Shown one piece after another: positions 1,471-21,654 of a stretch of DNA of 46,221 bases. Below the pieces are notes generated by a model. The model was not told where the DNA came from. It ran no database searches and was given only the letters and a program-made list of their open reading frames with translations. Positions within the stretch are counted from its first letter, which is position 1. Each line of letters opens with the position of its first letter. This DNA is from a virus. The position numbers and the translations under genes are program-made. Location of the stretch: UHGV virus genome UHGV-0126501; one strand, written 5' to 3'.

Positions 1471-3927
1471 TTAAAAATCAGCCTGACTCGGGATCAGTTT
1501 TTGCCAGATAGCTGAAACGTATTTTGCCTGGTAACGGGCGTCATCAAGTGCATTATGGCGCTCACCTTCGAATGGAATAGCCGTTCTGGCATCGAAGTCT
1601 ATGGCTTTCCCCAGCTCAACGATTGTGCGTACATCGCGATCGTTGTAGTAACGCCACGGGCAGGGGATCCCCTGCCGTTCGTATGAACGGCGCAAAATCG
1701 TGTTGTCGAAGTTGGCTCCATTTCCCCAGACCTGAACAAAAAATTCACCGGAGTTTTCGTCGATAAATTCTCGTAATTGTAACAGTGCATCATCTAACGG
1801 GATTTCATCGGTCATAATGGCAGATTGCGCTTCGCGTGATTGCTTCAGCCACCATTTAATAGTGTCCCGATCAATGACTCCGCCAGCAGTTTCCAGATCG
1901 ATAGTCTTACTAAATTCCGGTCCCATATCTCCGGTTTGCGGATCGAAAAATATTGCACCTATTGAGATAATCGGGGCATCAGGATTTTTTCCCATGGTTT
2001 CGAGGTCAATCATTAGATGGTCACACGTCCTGCTGGTGGATGTGATTTCGTGATGACCGTTCACCTTAATTGAGTGATCTGCCGCCTCGCCAGTTTTATT
2101 ATCGCTGGCGTGGTCCTGAGCGCTGCCAGCGTTCTCCTTGTGTGGATGTTCAGCGCCTTCCATTTCCTCCGGATCGTTTTCCTGAACTTCAACCTGATTC
2201 TCTTCATCGAATGTTTCCTGGTATGTTGCGTCGCACATCACCGCGCCACAATCAGGGCAGTTGCCGCCACCGCTCTGACCGCAGGCGGTGCAGACTTTTT
2301 CCGGTTCCTGTTGCGCTACTGGCTCAGGTTGTTTCGTTTCTGGCTCGTTTTGTAACTCATTTGGGCTGTTTTGTTCCGCTTTCTGGTCGTTCTGTTCCGT
2401 TTCTTGCTGGTTCTGATTCACTGAATCGCGGGTTTCAATCCCCTTCACCCATTTCGGATCATTCGGGTCGCTAATCCCTGCAACAAATTCACCGCGAGAG
2501 GCCGCAAGCAACTTATCGGCGTCAGGCTGGCTGGTATTGGCTGCCTGCATAATTTTGTTTACTTCGTCAGCGGTAACTTTTACCTGATTAACCGGATCTA
2601 TCTGTGCCTGAGTATCCAGCGATTGCGTGTCCTGGCGATGTTCAGTTGTATCCGGCTCCATTGCTTCAGTCGTTGCCTGTTCATCTGCCATTGCGTCAGA
2701 CGGTTGTGATTTTTCCTCATTATTTTTTTCTTCTTCTGTTTCGCATTCAGCAGCCAGTTCGCGGTTAACTTCTTCCAGGATATCTTTTTCCGGTGTATGT
2801 CGTGCAGCAGCGAGAGTTTCCTCGGTAGGGTTCTCGTGATCAGTCTCCGTTAAATAGGCGTTGATATACCCCTGAAGGCGTCCCGGGTAATGATAAAACT
2901 CAGGGTGTGCGCTCCGGATAAGTGCAAAAATAGCGGCGCGGGAATAATCCAGGATACCCGGGATTGCGCGAAGTGCTGCGGACCATTCTTTGAACGGACT
3001 TTCTTTCTTCCGGACGACTTCTTTTGCGCGACGATAAACGCTGCCCGGAATTTCATAAATATTAAAATCCATCGGAAGTGTGGCCGCTGCAATCTCCACA
3101 TCCAGCGTATCGAAGGTGTGTACTAAATTCGGATTGCGATCGGTTTTGTTCCCTCCACCGGCATTAGCACCGGAAGCCGTGCGGGTGATGCGTGAAACAC
3201 GATTTCCTTTCATCCACTCTTTTGTCAGCAGACCGCGATCGGTGTAGTCAGCGCCCAGGTATGCTTCGAAAAAAGCAGTCATTAGCCCCAGGCCTGAATT
3301 GCCAGGATTAGGGAAAACTTTGTCAGTATCACGCACCAGTTTGTGGAGATCGCGAATTTCCAGTGGATCGAGCAGACTGGTTTTATGCGAAATAGCGAGG
3401 GCAGTAACAGCTGGTAGTTCTTCAGCCCGTGCAATGTGTAATGCCTGGAGTTCGTCGCGTGAAACGTGCGTTACCGGTTTTTCGCTGCCGCGTTGAGCAA
3501 GCCAGCGAATGGGCAGTTCCTGACCGGAAACCGGCAGAAGCATGTTCTCCTCAATCTCAGCCATGTCTTCGCCGTTGACGTTGGTATTGTCAGTGCTGGC
3601 TGGTTTATCCTGAACAGAGGGCGAGGGCGCGATAAGTACCATTGTGATACCATCTTCCCCGCCTTTTTCGTATCGGTTGCAGAATTCGGTATCAAACACG
3701 CCTTCCGGAGGAAGGTCATTCACAACGGGTAAATGGACGCGAACAGGTTTTTTAAAATCCTCTTCGTCAAATCCGGCATCGTCCATTGCGACAACACCGC
3801 GTGATATTGCAACCGATAATTTTTTTGCTGTGCGCCAGTAAAAACCGCCTTTAATCCCAAGACGTTTTCTGACTTTGTCATTTTTGGCTTCGTAATATAG
3901 TGCAATTTCTTCTTTATCAGTGCTCAT
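1471..3927 (-). CDS. Large exonuclease with C-terminal DEDDh (DnaQ-like) 3'-5' exonuclease domain, annotated in prophages as exodeoxyribonuclease VIII-like
   Basis: 818-aa ORF; C-terminus has IDLETMG (Exo I), ...WGNGANFD... and [11 protein letters not shown] (Exo III, H-x4-D) motifs; acidic central linker with a Cys4 cluster ([20 protein letters not shown]). Confidence 0.75.
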
Positions 3928-10966: not shown

Positions 10967-11332
10967 ATGGCACTGACGAAAAAACAACGTGCAGAACTGC
11001 GCATGAAGTTCGGTGGTCGCTGCGCTTATTGCGGCTGCGAACTTGGCGAAAAGTGGCATGCAGATCATGTAAAACCGGTCATTCGTTTTGATGGAAATAT
11101 GCTTCACCAGGATCGTGACGATATATCCAACATGGTTCCGGCATGCCACCCATGCAATCTGCACAAGCATTGCAGTAGCCTGGAAGATTATCGGCGAATT
11201 ATCAGTGATGGTCGTCGTGAATTCCTTGCGTCCGGGAAAGGCAAAGCGCTGGTTCGTATGGGATTGGTTGAAATGAAATCTGACCCGGTTGTGTTCTGGT
11301 TTGAAAAATATCAAGAAGGGGCTACGGCATGA
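10967..11332 (+). CDS. HNH endonuclease
   Basis: C-x2-C ... HADH ... C-x2-C-NLHKH pattern (CAYCGCELGEKWHADHVKP...PACHPCNLHKH); ATG preceded by AAGGA. Confidence 0.8.
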   Translation: MALTKKQRAELRMKFGGRCAYCGCELGEKWHADHVKPVIRFDGNMLHQDRDDISNMVPACHPCNLHKHCSSLEDYRRIISDGRREFLASGKGKALVRMGLVEMKSDPVVFWFEKYQEGATA

Positions 11333-12333
11333 CCACTTTTACCAATAGCAAACTAACAGACGAATACGTTTCAAATGCAACGTTGATTCGGCTCATTCTG
11401 TGGGCTGACCAGCACAATAGTCATTATGTTGCAGCGGCTCTGCGCGAGCTACAGGAGCGCCGCAAGGCTGATAGTGTGTCTGTAGAAATCAACGACGACA
11501 TGGCTTACGCATTCCATCACGCATTGTCAGATTCATCGCCAGGCGCTGATGAAGTAGAGGAAATTAAGGCCGGTTTGCGTGCTGCCTTTGCCAACGTCAC
11601 CACCCAACCAGCACCAGTAGTGCCGGAATTTGAAACATGGTTTAACAGCCAGGAGTCAGGGAGGAGTATATGCAGCACACAGATTCGTCGTTCCCTTCAG
11701 GAAATTTCATGGAACGCCTGCTGCGCCGCCATGCTTCAGTGTGTCGAACCTGCAAGTAATCATGAAGAGTTGTCAGAGGAGAACGGATCATCGCTTCAAT
11801 TGCGCAATTTAATCCGGCAGCGCCATGCTGAATGGTCAGATAAGACGTTTGGCTGTGTTGGTCCAGTTGGCCCGCTGAAACATCTCTCAAAAGAGGCACT
11901 GGAAGCCGCAGCCGAACCAGACGATCTTAGCGAGTGGGCTGATATGCAGTTTCTGTTGTGGGATGCACAGCGCCGTGCTGGCATCAGCGATGCTGAAATT
12001 ACCGCTGCTATGGAAGATAAATTGAAGATCAACATGGAGTGCCAGTGGCCTGAGCCAAAAGATGGTGAACCTCGCTTGCACATTAAAGAACACTGCAACT
12101 CTCCGGTAACTCCGGATGGTTGGATAAGCTGTAGTGATGCAGTTCCTGCTGAATATTGCGATGTGATTCTTCTCGATGATCTCGGGAATGTATTCCCCGG
12201 TTCCTGGGATAAGGTTTTTTGCCCCACTCGTGGCGGGAATAAGATGGCTTTTGTGGACAAAGACGGCGTCGAAGTAGAGAGCTCAACTCACTGGATGCCG
12301 CTACCGGAACCACCGCAGGAGGTGAATCAATGA
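11329..12333 (+). CDS. DUF550/DUF551-type protein (MazG-like dNTP pyrophosphohydrolase-like N-terminal part, DUF551 C-terminal part)
   Basis: Recalled family signatures: ...RQRHAEWSDKTFG... and C-terminal ...DGWISCSDAVPAEYCDVILLDDLGNVF...; common in lambdoid nin/ea regions. Confidence 0.5.
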   Translation: MTTFTNSKLTDEYVSNATLIRLILWADQHNSHYVAAALRELQERRKADSVSVEINDDMAYAFHHALSDSSPGADEVEEIKAGLRAAFANVTTQPAPVVPEFETWFNSQESGRSICSTQIRRSLQEISWNACCAAMLQCVEPASNHEELSEENGSSLQLRNLIRQRHAEWSDKTFGCVGPVGPLKHLSKEALEAAAEPDDLSEWADMQFLLWDAQRRAGISDAEITAAMEDKLKINMECQWPEPKDGEPRLHIKEHCNSPVTPDGWISCSDAVPAEYCDVILLDDLGNVFPGSWDKVFCPTRGGNKMAFVDKDGVEVESSTHWMPLPEPPQEVNQ

Positions 12334-13154: not shown

Positions 13155-13334
13155 ATGAGCTACGCACTAAAAAAACACCCGCGATTGACTATTCCCCCTC
13201 GCGATAAAAGCGTTGTGGCAGCTCCGCGCCCGGCTATTGATGAAAATTGCACACATCGTGAGCAGGTGAAAAATGCTTTCGATTTCGGTTTTTCTCGTTA
13301 CGAGAAGGCAATGGAAGAACTTTCAAAAGTGTAA
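13155..13334 (+). CDS. Small ORF upstream of doc; candidate antitoxin
   Basis: 59-aa ORF (MSYALKKHPRLTIPPRDKSV...EELSKV) ending 18 nt before the Doc start; by position only. Below the ORF-track length cutoff. Confidence 0.35.
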   Translation: MSYALKKHPRLTIPPRDKSVVAAPRPAIDENCTHREQVKNAFDFGFSRYEKAMEELSKV

Positions 13335-13352
13335 TAATGGGTATTGTGCTCT

Positions 13353-13838
13353 ATGGCTGAGATTGTTGAAGGAGTGCACTATCTTTCGGTTGATGATCTT
13401 ACTGAAATCAATCGCCTTTTAATTGAGCTTCAAACACCAGATGAACCTGTAGGTGTGCTGAGTGTTGATAATTTAAGTTCTTCTCAGGCCCGTCCCAGCA
13501 TGGTTCGATGGTATGAACAGACTAATGACATGTTTGTACTGGCATCGGTATTGATTGAAAGTCTGATTCAGAATCATCCGTTTGCTAATGCGAACAAACG
13601 AACAGCTATGATGGCTGGTTACGTCTTCTTGTTGTTGAATGGCTATGAGTTAACAGCACCAGGCGATGAAATCGTGGAAATGGCAGAGGGACTGGCCTGC
13701 AAAACCTATACTCGAGAAGATCTCGAGAACTGGTTGTGTTATTGGTCTCGTGCGTATGACAGTCGGGAATTATGTAAAACAGGCGCAACTATTGTTTTGT
13801 ATGAAACTATCAAGCTTAAAATAGAACAGCAAAACTAA
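13353..13838 (+). CDS. Doc (death-on-curing) / Fic-family toxin
   Basis: Doc-type Fic motif HPFANANKRTA (H-x-F-x-[DN]-[AG]-N-K-R). Confidence 0.8.
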   Translation: MAEIVEGVHYLSVDDLTEINRLLIELQTPDEPVGVLSVDNLSSSQARPSMVRWYEQTNDMFVLASVLIESLIQNHPFANANKRTAMMAGYVFLLLNGYELTAPGDEIVEMAEGLACKTYTREDLENWLCYWSRAYDSRELCKTGATIVLYETIKLKIEQQN

Positions 13839-15287: not shown

Positions 15288-15659
15288 ATGCTCATAGATT
15301 TGGTTTTGCCTTACCCGCCGACGGTGAACACCTACTGGCGACGTCGTGGCAGCACATATTTTGTATCAAAAGCCGGTGAGCGTTATCGCCGGGATGTGGC
15401 ACTTATTGTTCGCCAGCAGCGGTTGAAATTAAACCTGTCCGGAAGGCTGGCGATAAAGATCATTGCAGAGCCGCCGGATAAGCGCCGTCGTGACATGGAC
15501 AATATTCTGAAAGCACCACTGGATGCACTGACACATGCGGGGTTGCTTATCGACGACGAGCAGTTTGATGAAATCAATATAGTGCGCGGTAAGGTCGTTC
15601 CTGGTGGTCGGTTGGGCGTGAAGATTTGCGAAATTAGAGGTGATAGTAATGGGGCGTGA
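15288..15659 (+). CDS. rusA: RusA-family Holliday junction resolvase
   Basis: 123 aa; LPYPPTVNTYW...RRRDMDNILKAPLDALTHAGLLIDDEQF matches RusA conserved regions including the catalytic Asp cluster. Confidence 0.85.
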   Translation: MLIDLVLPYPPTVNTYWRRRGSTYFVSKAGERYRRDVALIVRQQRLKLNLSGRLAIKIIAEPPDKRRRDMDNILKAPLDALTHAGLLIDDEQFDEINIVRGKVVPGGRLGVKICEIRGDSNGA

Positions 15660-16005
15660 TATGTATGAGGTTTTAGACCGCTGGGGGGCATGGGCTGCAG
15701 CAGAAAATAGTGGTGTCGATTGGCAGTCGATAGCGGCAGGCTTCAAGGGGCTTCTACCACACGGTAAAAAGTCACGCCTCCAGTGTGATGATGATGAAGG
15801 TATTATGATAGACGGTTGTGTGGCCCGCCTGCGGAAATATAAACCAGAAGAATATGAGCTGATCATTGCCCACTTTGTTATCGGGATTTCACTGAGGACG
15901 ATTGCAAAAAGAAGAAAATGTTGTGATGGAACTATTCGCAAAGAACTTCAAACAGCTATGGGGTTCATATCAGGTGTTTTGTCGCTGTTAAGCGAAGCCC
16001 AATAG
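15649..16005 (+). CDS. Late-gene antiterminator Q-like protein (short Q family)
   Basis: Position after rusA as in DLP12/lambdoid phages; ATG at 15649 with AGAGG SD, overlapping the rusA stop; Cys-containing C-terminal half. Confidence 0.55.
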   Translation: MGRDMYEVLDRWGAWAAAENSGVDWQSIAAGFKGLLPHGKKSRLQCDDDEGIMIDGCVARLRKYKPEEYELIIAHFVIGISLRTIAKRRKCCDGTIRKELQTAMGFISGVLSLLSEAQ

Positions 16006-16017
16006 GGCTTCGCTTAA
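15988..16017. other. 13-bp perfect stem hairpin spanning the convergent stop codons of Q (+) and the C5-methyltransferase (-)
   Basis: TTAAGCGAAGCCC-AATA-GGGCTTCGCTTAA; no U-tract on either side. Confidence 0.6.
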
Positions 16018-17054
16018 ATCGACGAAATTATAGCTCTCCCAAGTGCTTCAGCCATCTTGGGAGGAACCGCATTCCCAATTTGTTTTGCTTTTGATACTAA
16101 CGACCCCGTGAAGGAATAGTCTAATGGGAATGTCTGTAATAACGCAGCCTCTCTAACTGAAATTGCTCGGTCTTGTTCAGGATGCCCGAAACGTCCATTC
16201 GAATAGCTTATACACCTAGTCGTTAAGCCACTTGCAGGTTTGTCCCATGAAAGACGTCCATAAACATCCGTATGCCCTTTATATTTCTTATGGCATTCTA
16301 AGATCAAATTCTCAGGCCAAGACTCCCTTCCTTTTCCCTCTGGGGTAGCTTTTATGCGTTTAATATTCAGTTCGGACAGCCTGGCTGCTGTGTGATCAAT
16401 TATCTCTTTATGAGTTTCACCTGCAGCTATAGGTGGTAAATTACCGATCCAATCTCTTACCGTTGCAAACGGAGTTTCTACTCCGTCATGAGTTTTGGGT
16501 GGGAGCTTAATATGTGTGTGTCTTGACGCCAGCAAAACAAAACGTTCACGGGTCTGAGGAACTCCGAACCACAAAGCAGGAACAACACCAAAATCAACGT
16601 TGTAGTTATGATGAGTTAAAACTTCAAGAAATTTCTGGAAGTTTCCGTTATTGATATCGACGTTTTGGATTCCAGGCACATTTTCTATCAGTACGAAATC
16701 AGGAACATAATAAGATACAAAACGTGCAAATTCAGTCAGGAGATCTTTCCTGGGATCGTCGTTGTTCCGTGTTTTGTTCTGTTTTGAGAATGGTTGACAT
16801 GGGGCACATCCGCAAAACAAAGTCAGGGCTTTACATTTTTTTGAGTCAGAAATTAGATGATTAATATCTTCAACATGTGTATCTTTGATATCACCATTGA
16901 TGAAATGTGCTAATGGATTGTTTTTCTTGAAGGTATTAGACGAGTCTAGATCAATATCTAAACCAAATATAATTTCCATACCCACTGCTTTTAGGCCTGC
17001 ACTAGTGCCTCCGCAGCCGGAAAAAAAATCGTATACATGTATCTTTTTAGTCAT
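16014..17054 (-). CDS. DNA (cytosine-5)-methyltransferase
   Basis: Motif I FSGCGG, motif IV PCQPFS, motif VI ENV, motif VIII QTRERF, motif X GNAVPP. Confidence 0.9.
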   Translation of the reverse strand: MTKKIHVYDFFSGCGGTSAGLKAVGMEIIFGLDIDLDSSNTFKKNNPLAHFINGDIKDTHVEDINHLISDSKKCKALTLFCGCAPCQPFSKQNKTRNNDDPRKDLLTEFARFVSYYVPDFVLIENVPGIQNVDINNGNFQKFLEVLTHHNYNVDFGVVPALWFGVPQTRERFVLLASRHTHIKLPPKTHDGVETPFATVRDWIGNLPPIAAGETHKEIIDHTAARLSELNIKRIKATPEGKGRESWPENLILECHKKYKGHTDVYGRLSWDKPASGLTTRCISYSNGRFGHPEQDRAISVREAALLQTFPLDYSFTGSLVSKAKQIGNAVPPKMAEALGRAIISSI

Positions 17055-17057
17055 TAT

Positions 17058-18848
17058 CTACCTCACTCTTGGTCTGATAGTATCATTATCTAAAAAGATT
17101 TGCAGCAACTCTCGAGTTTTCGTTAACATTTCATGATCATTCGGTATTTTATTTAGCATTCTAATTTGAGTTTCAAAGATATCATCACTAGTAACATTAT
17201 CCAGCCCAGTATCGAGTTTACAAATTTCCTTAGTAATTTGTTTAGCATCTTGAACGTCTTTCGAAATTAATTCTTTATATTCCTTGTAGTCTCCATAGAC
17301 ATTTTCAATAAGAAATATTTCAGGCGTGTAAACAGGAAGGAAACCGATGCTATCGTGAATGAAATCGATGAAATCTCTTTGCATTTTATATTTTTGGCTA
17401 TGATTAGCTACACCTTTAGAGCCATCGCAGTTAAATTTGATGTCTTGGTTTGTTATTGATTTTATAATATCCTGAAGATTAGGGTTCTCGTTTTCTGGTA
17501 TTGAGTCAGAGGTTGGGTAGTTATCAACAATAGATTGATCACCATCTAGCAAAAAAATAACGTTTTTAACGTTAGCAACACATAATGGGGCTGCTAAAGT
17601 TTGAAAAATACTTCCGGCCCCTCCAGGAAAGTGCTTGACTTCAAAGGAGTTTAATAATGCTTCACCACCTGCTTTAAGAGCTTTCTCTACAAACCTCTTA
17701 GCCAAGCGATCTTCTACAATAACTGTTCTCTTCTCGATTCGCTCACCAAGGATGAAGAAAGATTCTTCTGGGCTGACATTTTGCAGAACATCAACTTTTC
17801 CTAATTTATCATTCAGGCAAAATAATTTTATAGCATTTTTCGGTAAGTCTTTTACTATTGTTGATGAATGAGTGGATATCACAATTTGATGTTTCTTTTT
17901 AATTGCTTGTTCAGATAAAAATTCCATTAATTGGCATTGTGCTGAAGGGTGAAGCGATACTTCAGGTTCGTCTAAAAGAATTAGTGATGCGTTTGGACTG
18001 TCTATTAGTTTATGTACTAAAATAGATACGGCGAATTCTCCACTACCAGCGAATGCTTCAGAATATTTTAAGTTTTCTGACTGAAGTATAATTGTTGGAG
18101 CTTTGTCATTCGTAAATAAGCAATGCTCGATAAGTCTAATACTAGTGTATTTTCGCCCTAAAATTTTGCTGATTGCCTCAACTTTATTTTTGCCTAATAA
18201 AGTATTGACAAAGAGTTTATCTTTTTTACCTTTGTGGGGTTGATATTTTTTTAGATCGTTATCGATGATTTCTCTTAGCATTTGACTGCGTTTTCTAAGA
18301 TAATCCTTCTTGGGATATGTATGAAAGTCAGAATGATAAAAGAATTTATCGAATGCACTTATCGTTGCTCTGAAATCTAAATAGATTACATTTTTATCAA
18401 TGGCTTTCCATCGTGTTTTTAATTGGTTATCCGAAAGTATTGTATCAGGCATAGTAGCCATATTATCTGATTTTAGAGGCCTAGAAGGTTCCCAGTAGTC
18501 AGGATCATTTTCTTTAGAAATTCGGGTTTTGATTACTTCAACAATAGAATCAGTAGCTTTATCATAATATCCATAAATGAATCTTGAGCGACCACCGTCT
18601 TTAATTTCATCCACATCTGTAGAAAACCATAGGCTACCTAATGAATAGTTGTTTGGTGAGCCGAAAAGGGCTCTTAAAACTGAGCTTTTATTCGTTCCAT
18701 TTTGACCGACCAACGCCGTGACTGGATAATCAAAATCGATTTTGCTTCCTTCGGCGAGGTTTTTGAAAAATGGGAAACGAATATGTCTAATAAATGGCTC
18801 AATCTGAGCGGATGCCATAATTTGTTTTAGTTTTAAATGGTTGTTCAT
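17058..18848 (-). CDS. OLD-family-like ABC ATPase with C-terminal TOPRIM-like acidic motifs (putative ATP-dependent nuclease)
   Basis: P-loop GQNGTNKSS, Walker B/D-loop LILLDEPEVSLHP, C-terminal VIVEDR and LLDGDQS motifs; 3 nt upstream of the C5-MTase on the same strand; AT-rich. Confidence 0.65.
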   Translation of the reverse strand: MNNHLKLKQIMASAQIEPFIRHIRFPFFKNLAEGSKIDFDYPVTALVGQNGTNKSSVLRALFGSPNNYSLGSLWFSTDVDEIKDGGRSRFIYGYYDKATDSIVEVIKTRISKENDPDYWEPSRPLKSDNMATMPDTILSDNQLKTRWKAIDKNVIYLDFRATISAFDKFFYHSDFHTYPKKDYLRKRSQMLREIIDNDLKKYQPHKGKKDKLFVNTLLGKNKVEAISKILGRKYTSIRLIEHCLFTNDKAPTIILQSENLKYSEAFAGSGEFAVSILVHKLIDSPNASLILLDEPEVSLHPSAQCQLMEFLSEQAIKKKHQIVISTHSSTIVKDLPKNAIKLFCLNDKLGKVDVLQNVSPEESFFILGERIEKRTVIVEDRLAKRFVEKALKAGGEALLNSFEVKHFPGGAGSIFQTLAAPLCVANVKNVIFLLDGDQSIVDNYPTSDSIPENENPNLQDIIKSITNQDIKFNCDGSKGVANHSQKYKMQRDFIDFIHDSIGFLPVYTPEIFLIENVYGDYKEYKELISKDVQDAKQITKEICKLDTGLDNVTSDDIFETQIRMLNKIPNDHEMLTKTRELLQIFLDNDTIRPRVR

Positions 18849-19102
18849 TTTTTCGACTAAAGTGATGTGAAGGTAAGGTATTTTACAAAAATGCTAACGC
18901 GTACGCAAAAGCTACAGTATCGTGTTAAGAGTGGTTACTTCGCCACACAGCTTAAACCCGCCGCCGTGCGGTTTTTTTTTGCCCTGGACGTGGGGGCAGT
19001 ACGGTAAACGTTTCGGTGGTTGTGGATACCAACTTTTCACCTTGCTGGCTTTTTCGACAAGAGTTATTGGTATGTCACGTTAACCAGAAAAGGGAAAAAG
19101 AC

Positions 19103-19450: not shown

Positions 19451-20497
19451 ATGGCCAATACTGTAAAAATATCCAGTTGTGAGTTAATCAACGCTGATTG
19501 CCTGGAATTTATCCAGACCTTACCGGAAAACTCTGTCGATCTGATAGTCACAGACCCGCCATACTTTAAAGTGAAGCCTGAGGGCTGGGATAACCAGTGG
19601 AAGGGCGACGATGATTACCTGAAATGGCTGGATCAGTGTCTGGCGCAATTCTGGCGGGTACTGAAACCTGCCGGAAGTCTCTACCTGTTCTGTGGTCATC
19701 GCCTGGCATCTGATATCGAAATCATGATGCGTGAGCGCTTTAATGTGCTGAACCACATTATCTGGGCGAAGCCGTCCGGACGCTGGAACGGATGCAACAA
19801 GGAAAGCCTGCGGGCGTATTTCCCGGCAACAGAACGCATTCTGTTTGCAGAACATTATCAGGGGCCATACCAGCCCAAAAATGACGGCTATGCGGCAAAG
19901 GGGCGCGAGCTTAAGCAGCACGTGATGGCTCCGCTGATTTCTTACTTTCGTGATGCGCGTGAATCACTGGGGATAACGTCAAAACAGATAGCTGAAGCCA
20001 CCGGAAAGAAAAACATGGCTTCGCACTGGTTTGGTACCAGTCAGTGGCAGTTACCGAATGAGGCCGATTACAGTAAACTACAGGCGCTGTTTGCACGTGT
20101 GGCGGCAGAAAAACACCAGCGCGGTGAACTGGAGCAGCCACACCACCAGCTGGTCAGCACATACAGCGAACTGAACCGGCAATATGCCAGCCTGCTGGAG
20201 GAATACAAATCACTGCGGCGTTATTTTTCCGTATCGGCTGTCGTTCCTTATACGGATGTCTGGACGCACAAGCCCGTGCAGTATTATCCGGGCAAACATC
20301 CCTGTGAAAAACCGGCGGATATGTTGCGTCAGATAATTACTGCCAGCAGTCGTCCTGGCGATTTGGTCGCAGATTTTTTTATGGGGTCGGGGTCGACAAT
20401 AAAAGCGGCACTGTCGCTGGGACGCAGGGCGATTGGCGTGGAACTGGAAGAGGAACGTTTTAATCAGACGGTCAGAGAAATAACGAAAGATTTTTAA
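19451..20497 (+). CDS. DNA methyltransferase, beta-class amino-MTase (N6-adenine or N4-cytosine)
   Basis: Motif IV DPPY (LIVTDPPYF) precedes C-terminal motif I FxGxG (DFFMGSGST). Confidence 0.85.
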   Translation: MANTVKISSCELINADCLEFIQTLPENSVDLIVTDPPYFKVKPEGWDNQWKGDDDYLKWLDQCLAQFWRVLKPAGSLYLFCGHRLASDIEIMMRERFNVLNHIIWAKPSGRWNGCNKESLRAYFPATERILFAEHYQGPYQPKNDGYAAKGRELKQHVMAPLISYFRDARESLGITSKQIAEATGKKNMASHWFGTSQWQLPNEADYSKLQALFARVAAEKHQRGELEQPHHQLVSTYSELNRQYASLLEEYKSLRRYFSVSAVVPYTDVWTHKPVQYYPGKHPCEKPADMLRQIITASSRPGDLVADFFMGSGSTIKAALSLGRRAIGVELEEERFNQTVREITKDF

Positions 20498-20715: not shown

Positions 20716-20792
20716 GCGGGTATCGTATAATGGCTATTACCTCAGCTTTCCAGGCTGATGATGTGGGTTCGATTCCCGTCACCCGCTCTCCA
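20716..20792 (+). tRNA. tRNA-Gly(UCC)-like element, probably degenerate
   Basis: Cloverleaf can be drawn: acceptor GCGGGTA, D-arm with GG, anticodon stem TCAGC/GCTGA with loop TTTCCAG (anticodon TCC), T-loop GGTTCGATTCC. But A7-C66 mismatch, two G-U pairs in the T-stem, and a TCTCCA 3' end instead of CCA. Confidence 0.45.
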
Positions 20793-21264: not shown

Positions 21265-21654
21265 ATGTCTGAACCCTTGTCCGGTTCCGGCACGGCTGCG
21301 GCGCTCGGCGGGGCGACGGTATTCGGGCTGTTTACCGGAACGGATTTCGGGATTGTGTTTGGTGCATTCGCAGGGGCGCTGTTTGTGGCCACGATACCAC
21401 AGCAGATTTCTGTCTGGCGTGTGGCAGCGCATTTTCTGGTGTCGTTCATTGTTGGCGTGCTGGGGGCGGATGTGATGGCGTCTTACCTGGTTGAAAAACT
21501 GAATCTCCACAGCACATCTCTCGACGCGCTTTGCGCGGTACTGGTATCGGTGGTGTCGGTGAAGATTCTCTCATTCATCCACCAGCAGGATATCGCATCG
21601 CTGGTATCCGGGCTGTTCTCCCGTCTGCGGGGTGGAGGCGGTAATGTTAAGTAA
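21265..21654 (+). CDS. Putative holin
   Basis: First gene of the lysis cassette; Gly/Ala-rich TM segments (TVFGLFTGTDFGIVFGAFAGALFVATI); SD AGGAG. Confidence 0.6.
   Translation: MSEPLSGSGTAAALGGATVFGLFTGTDFGIVFGAFAGALFVATIPQQISVWRVAAHFLVSFIVGVLGADVMASYLVEKLNLHSTSLDALCAVLVSVVSVKILSFIHQQDIASLVSGLFSRLRGGGGNVK

Follow-up and report, generated by a model that had tools for sequence, protein, structure and literature searches.

The virus genome UHGV-0126501, a stretch of 46,221 nucleotides (nt) that we here call the window, carries a cassette of two genes. The larger one codes for a predicted ATP-dependent nuclease in which an ABC-type ATPase is fused to a putative TOPRIM domain, the smaller one for a C5-cytosine DNA methyltransferase (MTase). 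Across genomes the linkage of this kind of ATPase to a C5-MTase is near-obligatory. The pair is probably an undescribed defence unit that resembles a restriction-modification (R-M) system. Two descriptions suit it equally well, that of an OLD-type nuclease partnered by a C5-MTase and that of an R-M-like system whose effector is a TOPRIM protein. It occurs widely and goes unannotated as a system.

No system model of PADLOC matches the pair, and the searchable full-text literature contains no description of an ATPase-TOPRIM protein joined to a C5-MTase, although an entry among the putative enzymes of REBASE is possible. PHROGs keeps the ATPase under phrog_3940 with “unknown function”. A preliminary description of the window, made from its letters, had reckoned with a match of both proteins to a system already characterised; none was found in PADLOC or the searchable literature. 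It had also called the arrangement no textbook R-M architecture, and rightly so: a restriction endonuclease (REase) of a recognised fold is missing, and the pair is not described there as a system.

The two proteins and their genes

The ATPase-nuclease gene (17058..18848, minus strand) encodes 596 residues, of which about 1-355 form the ABC-type ATPase and about 360-596 the predicted TOPRIM domain with a helical subdomain. The MTase gene follows on the same strand (16014..17054; 346 residues). At the junction (17055..17064) the putative ribosome-binding site of the MTase, GAGG (17064-17061), lies inside the 3' end of the ATPase gene; then come the TAG stop codon (17060-17058), an ATA spacer and the ATG at 17054. 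Read from the sequence, the spacer between stop and start measures 3 nt. As judged from this junction, the layout is that of an operon. Overlapping or nearly abutting junctions recur in homologous loci, with gaps from -45 to +43 nt and one exception of -141 (L016; labels of this form denote loci of our set). The GC content of the cassette is 0.33-0.38, against about 0.5 in both flanks. These readings agree with the preliminary description, which had given both reading frames, their 3-nt gap and the AT-richness of the pair. The motifs that it quoted are all present as well: GQNGTNKSS at residues 48-56, LILLDEPEVSLHP at 289-301, VIVEDR at 376-381 and LLDGDQS at 433-439 of the larger protein, and motifs I, IV, VI, VIII and X of the MTase.

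Residues 28-332 of the larger protein match the Pfam families AAA_15 (1.6e-15) and AAA_21 (1e-13). In PADLOC it is recognised by the models of HEC-04 (2.7e-35, residues 210-457) and of the ATPase-Toprim effector of type I-B retrons (1.2e-23, residues 43-467), while the AriA hidden Markov model (HMM) covers the ATPase part only (3e-16). RefSeq names the homologues “ATP-dependent nuclease”. A structure predicted by AlphaFold (AF2) for all 596 residues has a pLDDT of 88.9, and its top matches in Foldseek are Thermus OLD (6p74) and GajA, both aligned over the full length. OLD, GajA, PtuA and SMC heads are among the matches of the ATPase part, and the isolated C-terminal domain has PARIS AriB as one of its top matches by fold. 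For the whole protein and for this isolated domain, the best structural matches are proteins of the OLD family.

Conservation was judged from 44 full-length homologues of 43-91% identity, to which 25 sequences of the C-terminal domain were added. Invariant in the 44 are the P-loop, a signature-like Y262xEAFAGSGEF, the DEP of Walker B, H327, E379/D380, D435-G-D437, P509/E510 and K536. Within the Walker A motif G48-Q-N-G-T-N-K-S-S56 (18681..18707; like all sites of the cassette on the minus strand) this applies to G48, N50, G51, N53, K54, S55 and S56. Within the Walker B/D-loop L289-I-L-L-D-E-P295 (17964..17984), which aligns with Walker B of Thermus OLD 6p74, it applies to L289, D293, E294 and P295. 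The acidic pair E379-D380 of VIVEDR (17709..17714) and the putative metal-binding motif D435-G-D437 of LLDGDQS (17538..17546) are invariant in the 25 C-terminal domains too. The predicted model places the former at the end of strand 1 of a TOPRIM-like sheet; the latter corresponds to the DxD motif of HEC-04.

The TOPRIM domain was detected only by fold comparison and by the PADLOC models. The last 240 residues match no Pfam family when the 25 C-terminal domains are searched, and no PDB sequence when a profile of these 25 is used; nor does DUF4435 of Pfam match the protein or the C-terminal set. The predicted fold and the invariant acidic residues support the TOPRIM reading, and the large protein is, by its model, OLD-like in architecture: an N-terminal ABC ATPase with Walker A, signature-like motif, Walker B/D-loop and H-loop is followed by a predicted TOPRIM fold with the conserved Glu and DxD. 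The ABC-type P-loop and the Walker B/D-loop that the preliminary description had recognised have held up, and its reading of the C-terminal motifs as consistent with a TOPRIM nuclease is supported by the predicted fold. Of the profile and structure searches it proposed, those for AAA_15/AAA_21 and PF00145 returned matches, and TOPRIM came out by fold, not by Pfam.

The relatives share much of this design. P2 Old, Thermus OLD, GajA, the effector of retron Eco8 and AriA/AriB of PARIS have the same N-terminal ABC ATPase with inserts and the same C-terminal TOPRIM domain (Glu plus DxD) with a helical subdomain, and P2 Old is prophage-borne like the protein of the window. Their identity to it is, however, only 12-14%, and its partner is a C5-MTase. 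PARIS, which anti-restriction proteins trigger, consists of two proteins, AriA (the ABC ATPase) and AriB (a DUF4435 TOPRIM), without an MTase, whereas the window has a single fused polypeptide. HEC-04, of the HEC-04/IbfA kind to which ibfA of plasmid R64 belongs, is the best match in PADLOC, if a partial one: it covers profile positions 156-397 of 494, and in our protein it reaches from the last part of the ATPase over the metal site of TOPRIM. Mutants of HEC-04 in Walker A or in the TOPRIM residues E/D/D lose defence (Payne et al. 2024 preprint). It is a single-gene ABC ATPase-TOPRIM which acts alone and has no MTase partner; the family of the window forms a separate clade that almost always has one.

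The small protein is, by its sequence, a canonical C5-cytosine MTase, as the preliminary description had it. PF00145 matches residues 6-343 (2.2e-59), and TIGR00675 (6e-42) and the PADLOC model MTase_II (3.6e-91) match as well. Motifs I (FxGxGG), IV (PCQ), VI (ENV), VIII (QxRxR) and X (GNAVPP) follow each other in canonical order and are invariant in 7 orthologues of 57-89% identity (alignment A3), the catalytic P85-C86-Q87 of motif IV (16794..16802) included. A PC[Q/E/P/T] motif is found in all 57 partner MTases examined. One source labels a homologue at 69% identity M.HgiDII. We considered the cassette as an HgiDII system and rejected this identity: R.HgiDII is a GHKL protein and not an ABC-TOPRIM, and the window shows no significant shortage of the site GTCGAC (4 observed, 8.3 +/- 2.8 expected).

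Association of the two genes across genomes

The evidence for a functional unit comes mainly from gene neighbourhoods. When one genome per species was scanned, 71 loci with a member of the ATPase family emerged from many phyla, and in 65 of them a C5-MTase lies beside or near the ATPase. The nearest MTase gene abuts on the same strand, downstream in 29 loci and upstream in 15; it is adjacent on the opposite strand in 2, separated by one or two genes in 15 and within about 4.6 kb in 4. Three of the 6 loci without an MTase lie in other defence contexts and belong to an outgroup that is divergent (27-31% identity); the other three have little or no upstream flank. In the viral contigs of IMG/VR the exact arrangement of the window was met in 47 of 62 loci, and an MTase in 58 of these 62, that is, in 58 of the 59 with usable flanks. 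The linkage spans Proteobacteria, Bacillota, Actinomycetota, Bacteroidota, Nitrospirota, Planctomycetota and further phyla, within prophages as well as elsewhere. Since C5-MTase genes are few in a typical genome, chance adjacency at the observed rate is excluded, by general expectation and not by computation. L131 (IMGVR_UViG_3300032155_000022; ATPase score 629) is the sole viral locus in which no C5-MTase was detected although each flank extends over about 3.8 kb; it may break the linkage, or its MTase may have diverged beyond the reach of the profile used.

Individual examples give the same picture. In RefSeq genomes of E. coli the pair sits between Q and holin in two diverged versions, of about 84% and about 70% DNA identity, annotated as “ATP-dependent nuclease” and “DNA cytosine methyltransferase”. 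Four distant ATPase homologues (42-52% identity) were looked up, from Duganella, Oceanospirillum, Arsenophonus and Tolumonas, and the gene directly downstream is a C5-MTase in every case; in Duganella and Oceanospirillum the pair is a two-gene island amid housekeeping genes. An exhaustive profile search (E <= 1e-30) gathered 564 clusters at 50% identity, with full-length members of about 580-650 residues. The module occurs in prophages and in IMG/VR contigs; a tblastn search of 50,697 records of isolated phage genomes gave no match. From plasmids just one distant full-length relative was retrieved, in Clostridium at 25.6% identity; its gene table, which is incomplete and thus uninformative, shows no MTase next to it.

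By gene context, the family falls outside the established divisions of OLD proteins. Class 1 (P2 Old and Thermus OLD) is solitary, class 2 (GajA) is accompanied by the UvrD-like helicase GajB, class 3 (the effector of retron Eco8) by a retron reverse transcriptase with its non-coding RNA, and class 4 is the split AriA/AriB of PARIS (PMC10568477 and the PARIS papers). A class linked to an MTase is not listed in the OLD review (PMC10568477), and a family with the partner counts given above fits none of the four.

Both activities appear, from sequence comparison, to be selected. Walker A, Walker B and the DGD motif are kept in 57 of 57 ATPases, and motifs IV, VI, VIII and X in all 57 partner MTases. 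Where decay is seen, it strikes the nuclease. A prophage type that is 99% protein-identical to that of the window (7 contigs; L156/L157) has its ATPase gene split at the DGD into 436 and 174 residues, with the MTase of 346 residues intact. In a prophage of Klebsiella quasipneumoniae (L158) the ATPase gene is frameshifted (381 plus 164 residues), again beside an intact MTase. An intact nuclease beside a broken MTase was not seen among the loci examined. This asymmetry, nuclease lost and MTase kept, is R-M-like; as in Type II R-M systems, the linkage of nuclease and MTase is tight and conserved, and the MTase is retained when the nuclease decays.

Over longer distances, the two genes have not always travelled together. 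In the clade of the window they co-diverge (MTases of 57-89% identity where the ATPases have 43-91%), with high conservation of the target-recognition region. For the family as a whole, the Spearman correlation between the pairwise identities of ATPases and MTases is 0.15, and two loci with ATPases of 68% identity (L060 and L066) have MTases of 26% identity. Evidently, then, the ATPase has changed partners between unrelated C5-MTases, and this swapping speaks against the nuclease as the seat of specificity.

Some loci contain more than the pair. Canonical Vsr accompanies it in 19; in one (L054) the order is ATPase-MTase-Vsr, with the ATPase in the R position. An enzyme of the R.HpaII family lies between MTase and ATPase in 7 loci (L019, L034, L043, L053, L058, L060 and L065), its identity resting on Pfam values of 2e-144 and 5e-117 for the two tested. 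This operon of C5-MTase, R.HpaII and ATPase-TOPRIM recurs in Bacteroidota, Bacillota and Verrucomicrobiota. A Vsr homologue is present in L034, L043, L053 and L060; in L053 and L060 the order is Vsr-M-R.HpaII-ATPase, with Vsr directly upstream of the MTase. By their gene content, these HpaII-type loci are classical Type II systems with the ATPase-TOPRIM nuclease as an extra component. Elsewhere a SmaI-like (L047), a BsaWI-like or an HNH nuclease takes this place between MTase and ATPase. GHKL genes of the R.HgiDII/R.NmeAIP kind (HATPase_c_3, some with Hypoth_Ymh) separate MTase and ATPase at L026, L036, L059 and L074. Two-component-like genes for HEF_HK along with Response_reg_2, confirmed by Pfam at L031, do so there and occur in the same layout at L032, L039 and L040, with the C5-MTase adjoining.

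Restriction, guarding or repair

With about as much confidence as doubt, we regard the pair as an R-M-like defence that depends on ATP and is gated by methylation, with the MTase as the marker of self and the probable source of site recognition. The C5-MTase would methylate a specific cytosine-containing site on the resident DNA, that is, on the host chromosome and the prophage. The ABC-ATPase/TOPRIM protein would be an ATP-dependent effector that acts where this mark is missing on incoming DNA. Like Mod in Type III systems, the MTase would provide site recognition, be it in a complex with the effector or by dwelling on unmethylated sites, and the ABC ATPase would couple the recognition signal to cleavage by TOPRIM. 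In a lysogen, the operon's own promoter would drive its transcription, in antisense to the operons of the phage; superinfecting phages would be excluded and the prophage stabilised. We infer, in other words, that unmethylated DNA is the trigger, that specificity comes from the MTase, that the two proteins interact and that DNA is the substrate.

R-M logic is the simplest reading of the obligate linkage, the catalysis kept in both proteins, the company of Vsr and the asymmetry of decay. The presence of Vsr counts for it because Vsr is also found in genuine R-M operons for 5-methylcytosine (m5C). So does the nature of the closest HMM relatives: HEC-04 and the retron I-B/Eco8 effector are validated defence nucleases, and the latter is reported to cleave double-stranded DNA. 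No domain for reading sequence is evident in the ATPase-TOPRIM nuclease, which has also changed between unrelated C5-MTases; the MTase is therefore the most likely supplier of site recognition. The preliminary description had proposed the nuclease as the restriction partner of the MTase. The linkage, the kept catalysis and the decay support the R-M-like side of this proposal; a plain partner role is not established, in view of the complete R-M systems and GHKL proteins beside members of the family, the MTase swaps and the tRNase relatives.

Known R-M systems offer parallels, none of them complete. A classical Type II system requires a recognised REase fold that works without ATP, and the only nuclease next to the MTase of the window is the ABC ATPase-TOPRIM. 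The recognised folds are PD-(D/E)xK, HNH, GIY-YIG, PLD and half-pipe; TOPRIM is not among them (PMC2441816). Models of REases are absent from the 25 best PADLOC matches (all E <= 3.6e-11). Type III systems pair Mod, an N6A/N4C MTase with a target-recognition domain, with Res, a helicase of superfamily 2 (SF2) carrying PD-(D/E)xK; the window has a C5 enzyme and ABC/TOPRIM instead, and the likeness lies in the proposed logic only. CglI/NgoAVII and BsuMI are Type II-like, ATP-dependent systems with m5C MTases, which use SF2-helicase or other NTPases with PD-(D/E)xK or PLD nucleases. They demonstrate that an m5C MTase can partner ATP-dependent restriction proteins, although in the window the motor is ABC and the nuclease TOPRIM. 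By analogy, these systems may be regarded as the nearest conceptual relatives, with the GHKL-type partners also close.

Those GHKL and paraMORC partners (R.HgiDII, R.NmeAIP-like; Iyer 2008; HEF_HK/Response_reg_2, PMC8011034) likewise tie an ATPase with an unclear nuclease mechanism to a C5-MTase, often with Vsr. They differ from our protein in belonging to the GHKL and not the ABC superfamily, and in lacking TOPRIM. The Type II classification (PMC2441816) treats R.HgiDII as a GHKL protein whose C-terminal domain is left unassigned. Term searches in the papers on GHKL/paraMORC and HEF_HK proteins (PMC2292703, PMC8011034, PMC2441816) revealed no mention of an ABC-TOPRIM partner.

Several observations weigh against restriction by the ATPase-TOPRIM protein. 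Where a complete HpaII-type R-M pair is present, as in the 7 loci, or a SmaI-like, BsaWI-like or HNH nuclease, as elsewhere, a second nuclease acting on the same mark would be partly redundant. The best-studied relatives, the prototype P2 Old and PARIS AriB, are not DNA restriction enzymes; they are now known as abortive tRNases activated by sensing. The nuclease gene comes first in the operon and no controller protein is encoded; for a simple enzyme that cuts every unmethylated site, establishment in an unmethylated host would be dangerous. Finally, no fusion of MTase and ATPase was found among the 150 best representatives of the family, the longest of which has 699 residues.

The strongest rival reading is abortive infection of a guard type, which we consider possible yet rather unlikely. 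As in PrrC/EcoprrI or PARIS, the ABC ATPase would monitor the C5-MTase, its R-M system or the methylation and, upon interference by a phage, unleash the TOPRIM nuclease, possibly on tRNA; the infected cell would be killed or arrested, with no site-specific cutting of foreign DNA. An ABC ATPase with a nuclease is the standard sensor-effector layout of abortive systems, and AriB, one of the top fold matches noted above, cleaves tRNA, as does P2 Old. In complete R-M operons (Vsr-M-R.HpaII-ATPase in L053/L060, the SmaI-like REase in L047) the ATPase is an extra, reminiscent of PrrC, whose genomic signature is that of an extra gene in type I loci. The likeness to PrrC and PARIS, a sensing ABC ATPase with a nuclease as effector within or beside R-M genes, is seen in the HpaII-type and SmaI-type loci; PrrC, however, sits inside a type I locus and has an anticodon nuclease domain, whereas the window has no restriction enzyme to guard. 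A guard would also explain how a nuclease-first operon without controller protein enters a new host safely. Yet the MTase directly abuts the ATPase in 46 of the 71 loci from genomes and in 56 of the 62 viral ones, both loci with all neighbours identified contain a stand-alone two-gene island, and most loci lack a restriction enzyme. An orphan MTase offers no defence worth guarding, and a mere bait or scaffold would not need the catalytic motifs that are invariant in these MTases. We also know of no phage inhibitor of C5-MTases, which counts against guarding.

A repair function is highly improbable: the nuclease would assist m5C methylation in the manner of Vsr or MutS/MutL, though with ATP, and deal with T:G mismatches or other lesions caused by C5-MTases. 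The association is specific to C5-MTases, which is typical of Vsr, although N6/N4 MTases were not systematically scanned and an N6 MTase was seen only beside a member of the outgroup (L077); GHKL/MutL-like ATPases are met in the same neighbourhoods (see also PMC2292703). The canonical Vsr in 19 loci, however, leaves no vacancy, and for this reason we rejected the ATPase as a Vsr substitute. The nearest characterised relatives are toxic defence nucleases, and prophage moron slots together with frameshift loss of the nuclease and retention of the MTase better fit a costly nuclease. Scarcely credible, in our view, is the coincidence of two independent neighbouring morons, i.e., an orphan phage C5-MTase shielding the phage DNA from host restriction and a stand-alone exclusion nuclease of the class 1 OLD/HEC-04 kind. 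Each type of gene does have solitary representatives: one gene suffices for defence by HEC-04/IbfA, and phages often carry orphan MTases (another one is encoded in the window at 19451-20497). Moreover, the slot behind Q holds unrelated genes in other phages. The linkage over many phyla, in and out of prophages and usually with overlapping or abutting frames, speaks against coincidence, as do the co-divergence in the clade of the window and the restriction of MTase-less loci to the divergent outgroup of 27-31% identity.

The prophage setting and the wider meaning

The window looks like a complete lambdoid prophage, with a lambda-type integrase, a RecE-like exonuclease, DUF968, RusA, Q, holins, a GH108 endolysin, gpA terminase, a J tail tip and a tail fibre. 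The gene for antiterminator Q (15640..16005, plus strand; PF06530, 3e-45) converges on the cassette, its stop codon being 8 nt from that of the MTase; holins and endolysin begin at 21265. The cassette is antisense to Q and to the lysis genes. Its right border is marked by a conserved phage leader with a terminator-like hairpin and a T-run (18923..18981, plus strand), which forms the right edge of the insertion slot. The block 18923-18978 is invariant and common to phiP27, mEp460 and an E. coli C4 prophage; it contains a terminator-like site (18960-18972) followed by T9, and probably represents the leader of the late operon downstream of pR'. Matches to cassette-free phages begin at about 18879-18923 of the window.

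The preliminary description had equated the site of the cassette, from Q to the lysis genes, with the slot of stx in Stx phages. The cassette does lie between Q and the lysis genes, but comparison with other phages indicates a different place: a variable slot between Q and the late leader, which the cassette fills in antisense, upstream of the stx position. In phiP27 the order is Q, L22 (a gene with T5orf172/MUG113 domain), leader block, small open reading frame (ORF), DNA methylase (L24), tRNAs and stx2e, which is further downstream; mEp460 has an unrelated antisense gene of 308 residues in place of L22 of phiP27. The cargo of the slot thus differs between lambdoid phages: the cassette here, the antisense gene in mEp460, the T5orf172/MUG113-domain gene in phiP27. 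The counterpart of the stx position in the window, behind a tRNA-Gly gene at 20716-20788, is empty of toxin or other cargo.

A candidate sigma-70 promoter of the operon (18880..18908, minus strand) consists of a -35 hexamer TTGCGT (18908-18903), a 17-nt spacer and a -10 hexamer TAAAAT (18885-18880). A stricter consensus scan for promoters did not pick it up. The -35 element, the spacing and a -10-like hexamer are kept in 8 cassettes of lambdoid context whose ATPases are 58-91% identical, and this geometry, conserved across relatives, suggests that TTGCGT-17-TAAAAT is the operon's own promoter. The block TTTTTGCGTACGCGTTAG is conserved beside both antisense cargoes (window 18880-18981; L155 ~1440-1640; L154 ~2440-2620; L001 8942-9130). 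It may serve as a divergent promoter that they share, or else belong to the late promoter on which Q acts.

Other genes of the window deserve a brief mention. The second DNA MTase (19451-20497, plus strand; N6_N4_Mtase, 6.3e-45) is unrelated to the first and is followed by the gene for tRNA-Gly(UCC) (20716-20788, plus strand), in the same order as L24 methylase and tRNAs before stx2e in phiP27. Phage tRNAs can rescue cells from the tRNases PARIS and P2 Old, which makes a tRNA gene about 2 kb from that of an OLD-like nuclease worth noting. A Fic/DOC-family protein of 164 residues (13155-13838, plus strand; PF02661, 8.6e-12) has the Doc-type motif HPFANANKRTA, and an ORF of 59 residues ends 10 nt upstream of its gene; together they look like a Phd/Doc-type toxin-antitoxin pair in the nin region. 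Near the integrase end, a protein of 818 residues (1471-3927, minus strand) combines an Exonuclease VIII (RecE-like) region with a C-terminal Rv2179c-like 3'-5' exoribonuclease domain (1.7e-67), an unusual fusion. In the early-right region, a protein of 334 residues (11329-12333, plus strand) fuses a dATP/dGTP pyrophosphohydrolase domain (2.1e-41) to DUF551.

What the pair might mean goes beyond this prophage. Tentatively, it may stand for a new ATP-dependent type of R-M and a fifth, MTase-linked class of OLD proteins, the C5-MTase being self-marker and DNA-recognition subunit for the ABC-ATPase/TOPRIM protein; in a variant of this idea, unmethylated sites would license an abortive tRNase rather than DNA cleavage. 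TOPRIM would then join the catalytic folds of restriction and be a portable effector for unrelated m5C MTases. The family is large and present in many phyla, yet its annotations go no further than “ATP-dependent nuclease” or “AAA family ATPase”, and finders of defence systems would call the MTase an orphan and the ATPase a stray match to Gabija, PARIS or Septu-like systems. The natural frameshift strains (L156/L157, L158) would be ready-made nuclease-null controls. The pair also has a bearing on the role of the other ATPase genes beside C5-MTases, the R.HgiDII-like GHKL proteins and paraMORCs, which co-occur with the ATPase-TOPRIM protein in several lineages. If the reading is true, the OLD nucleases would gain a class and restriction systems a novel mode of construction, and the pair would provide a simple two-gene model for how ABC-ATPase sensors read the state of DNA. 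Many “orphan” m5C MTases, including some in prophages of E. coli, Klebsiella and Yersinia, would have to be re-classified.

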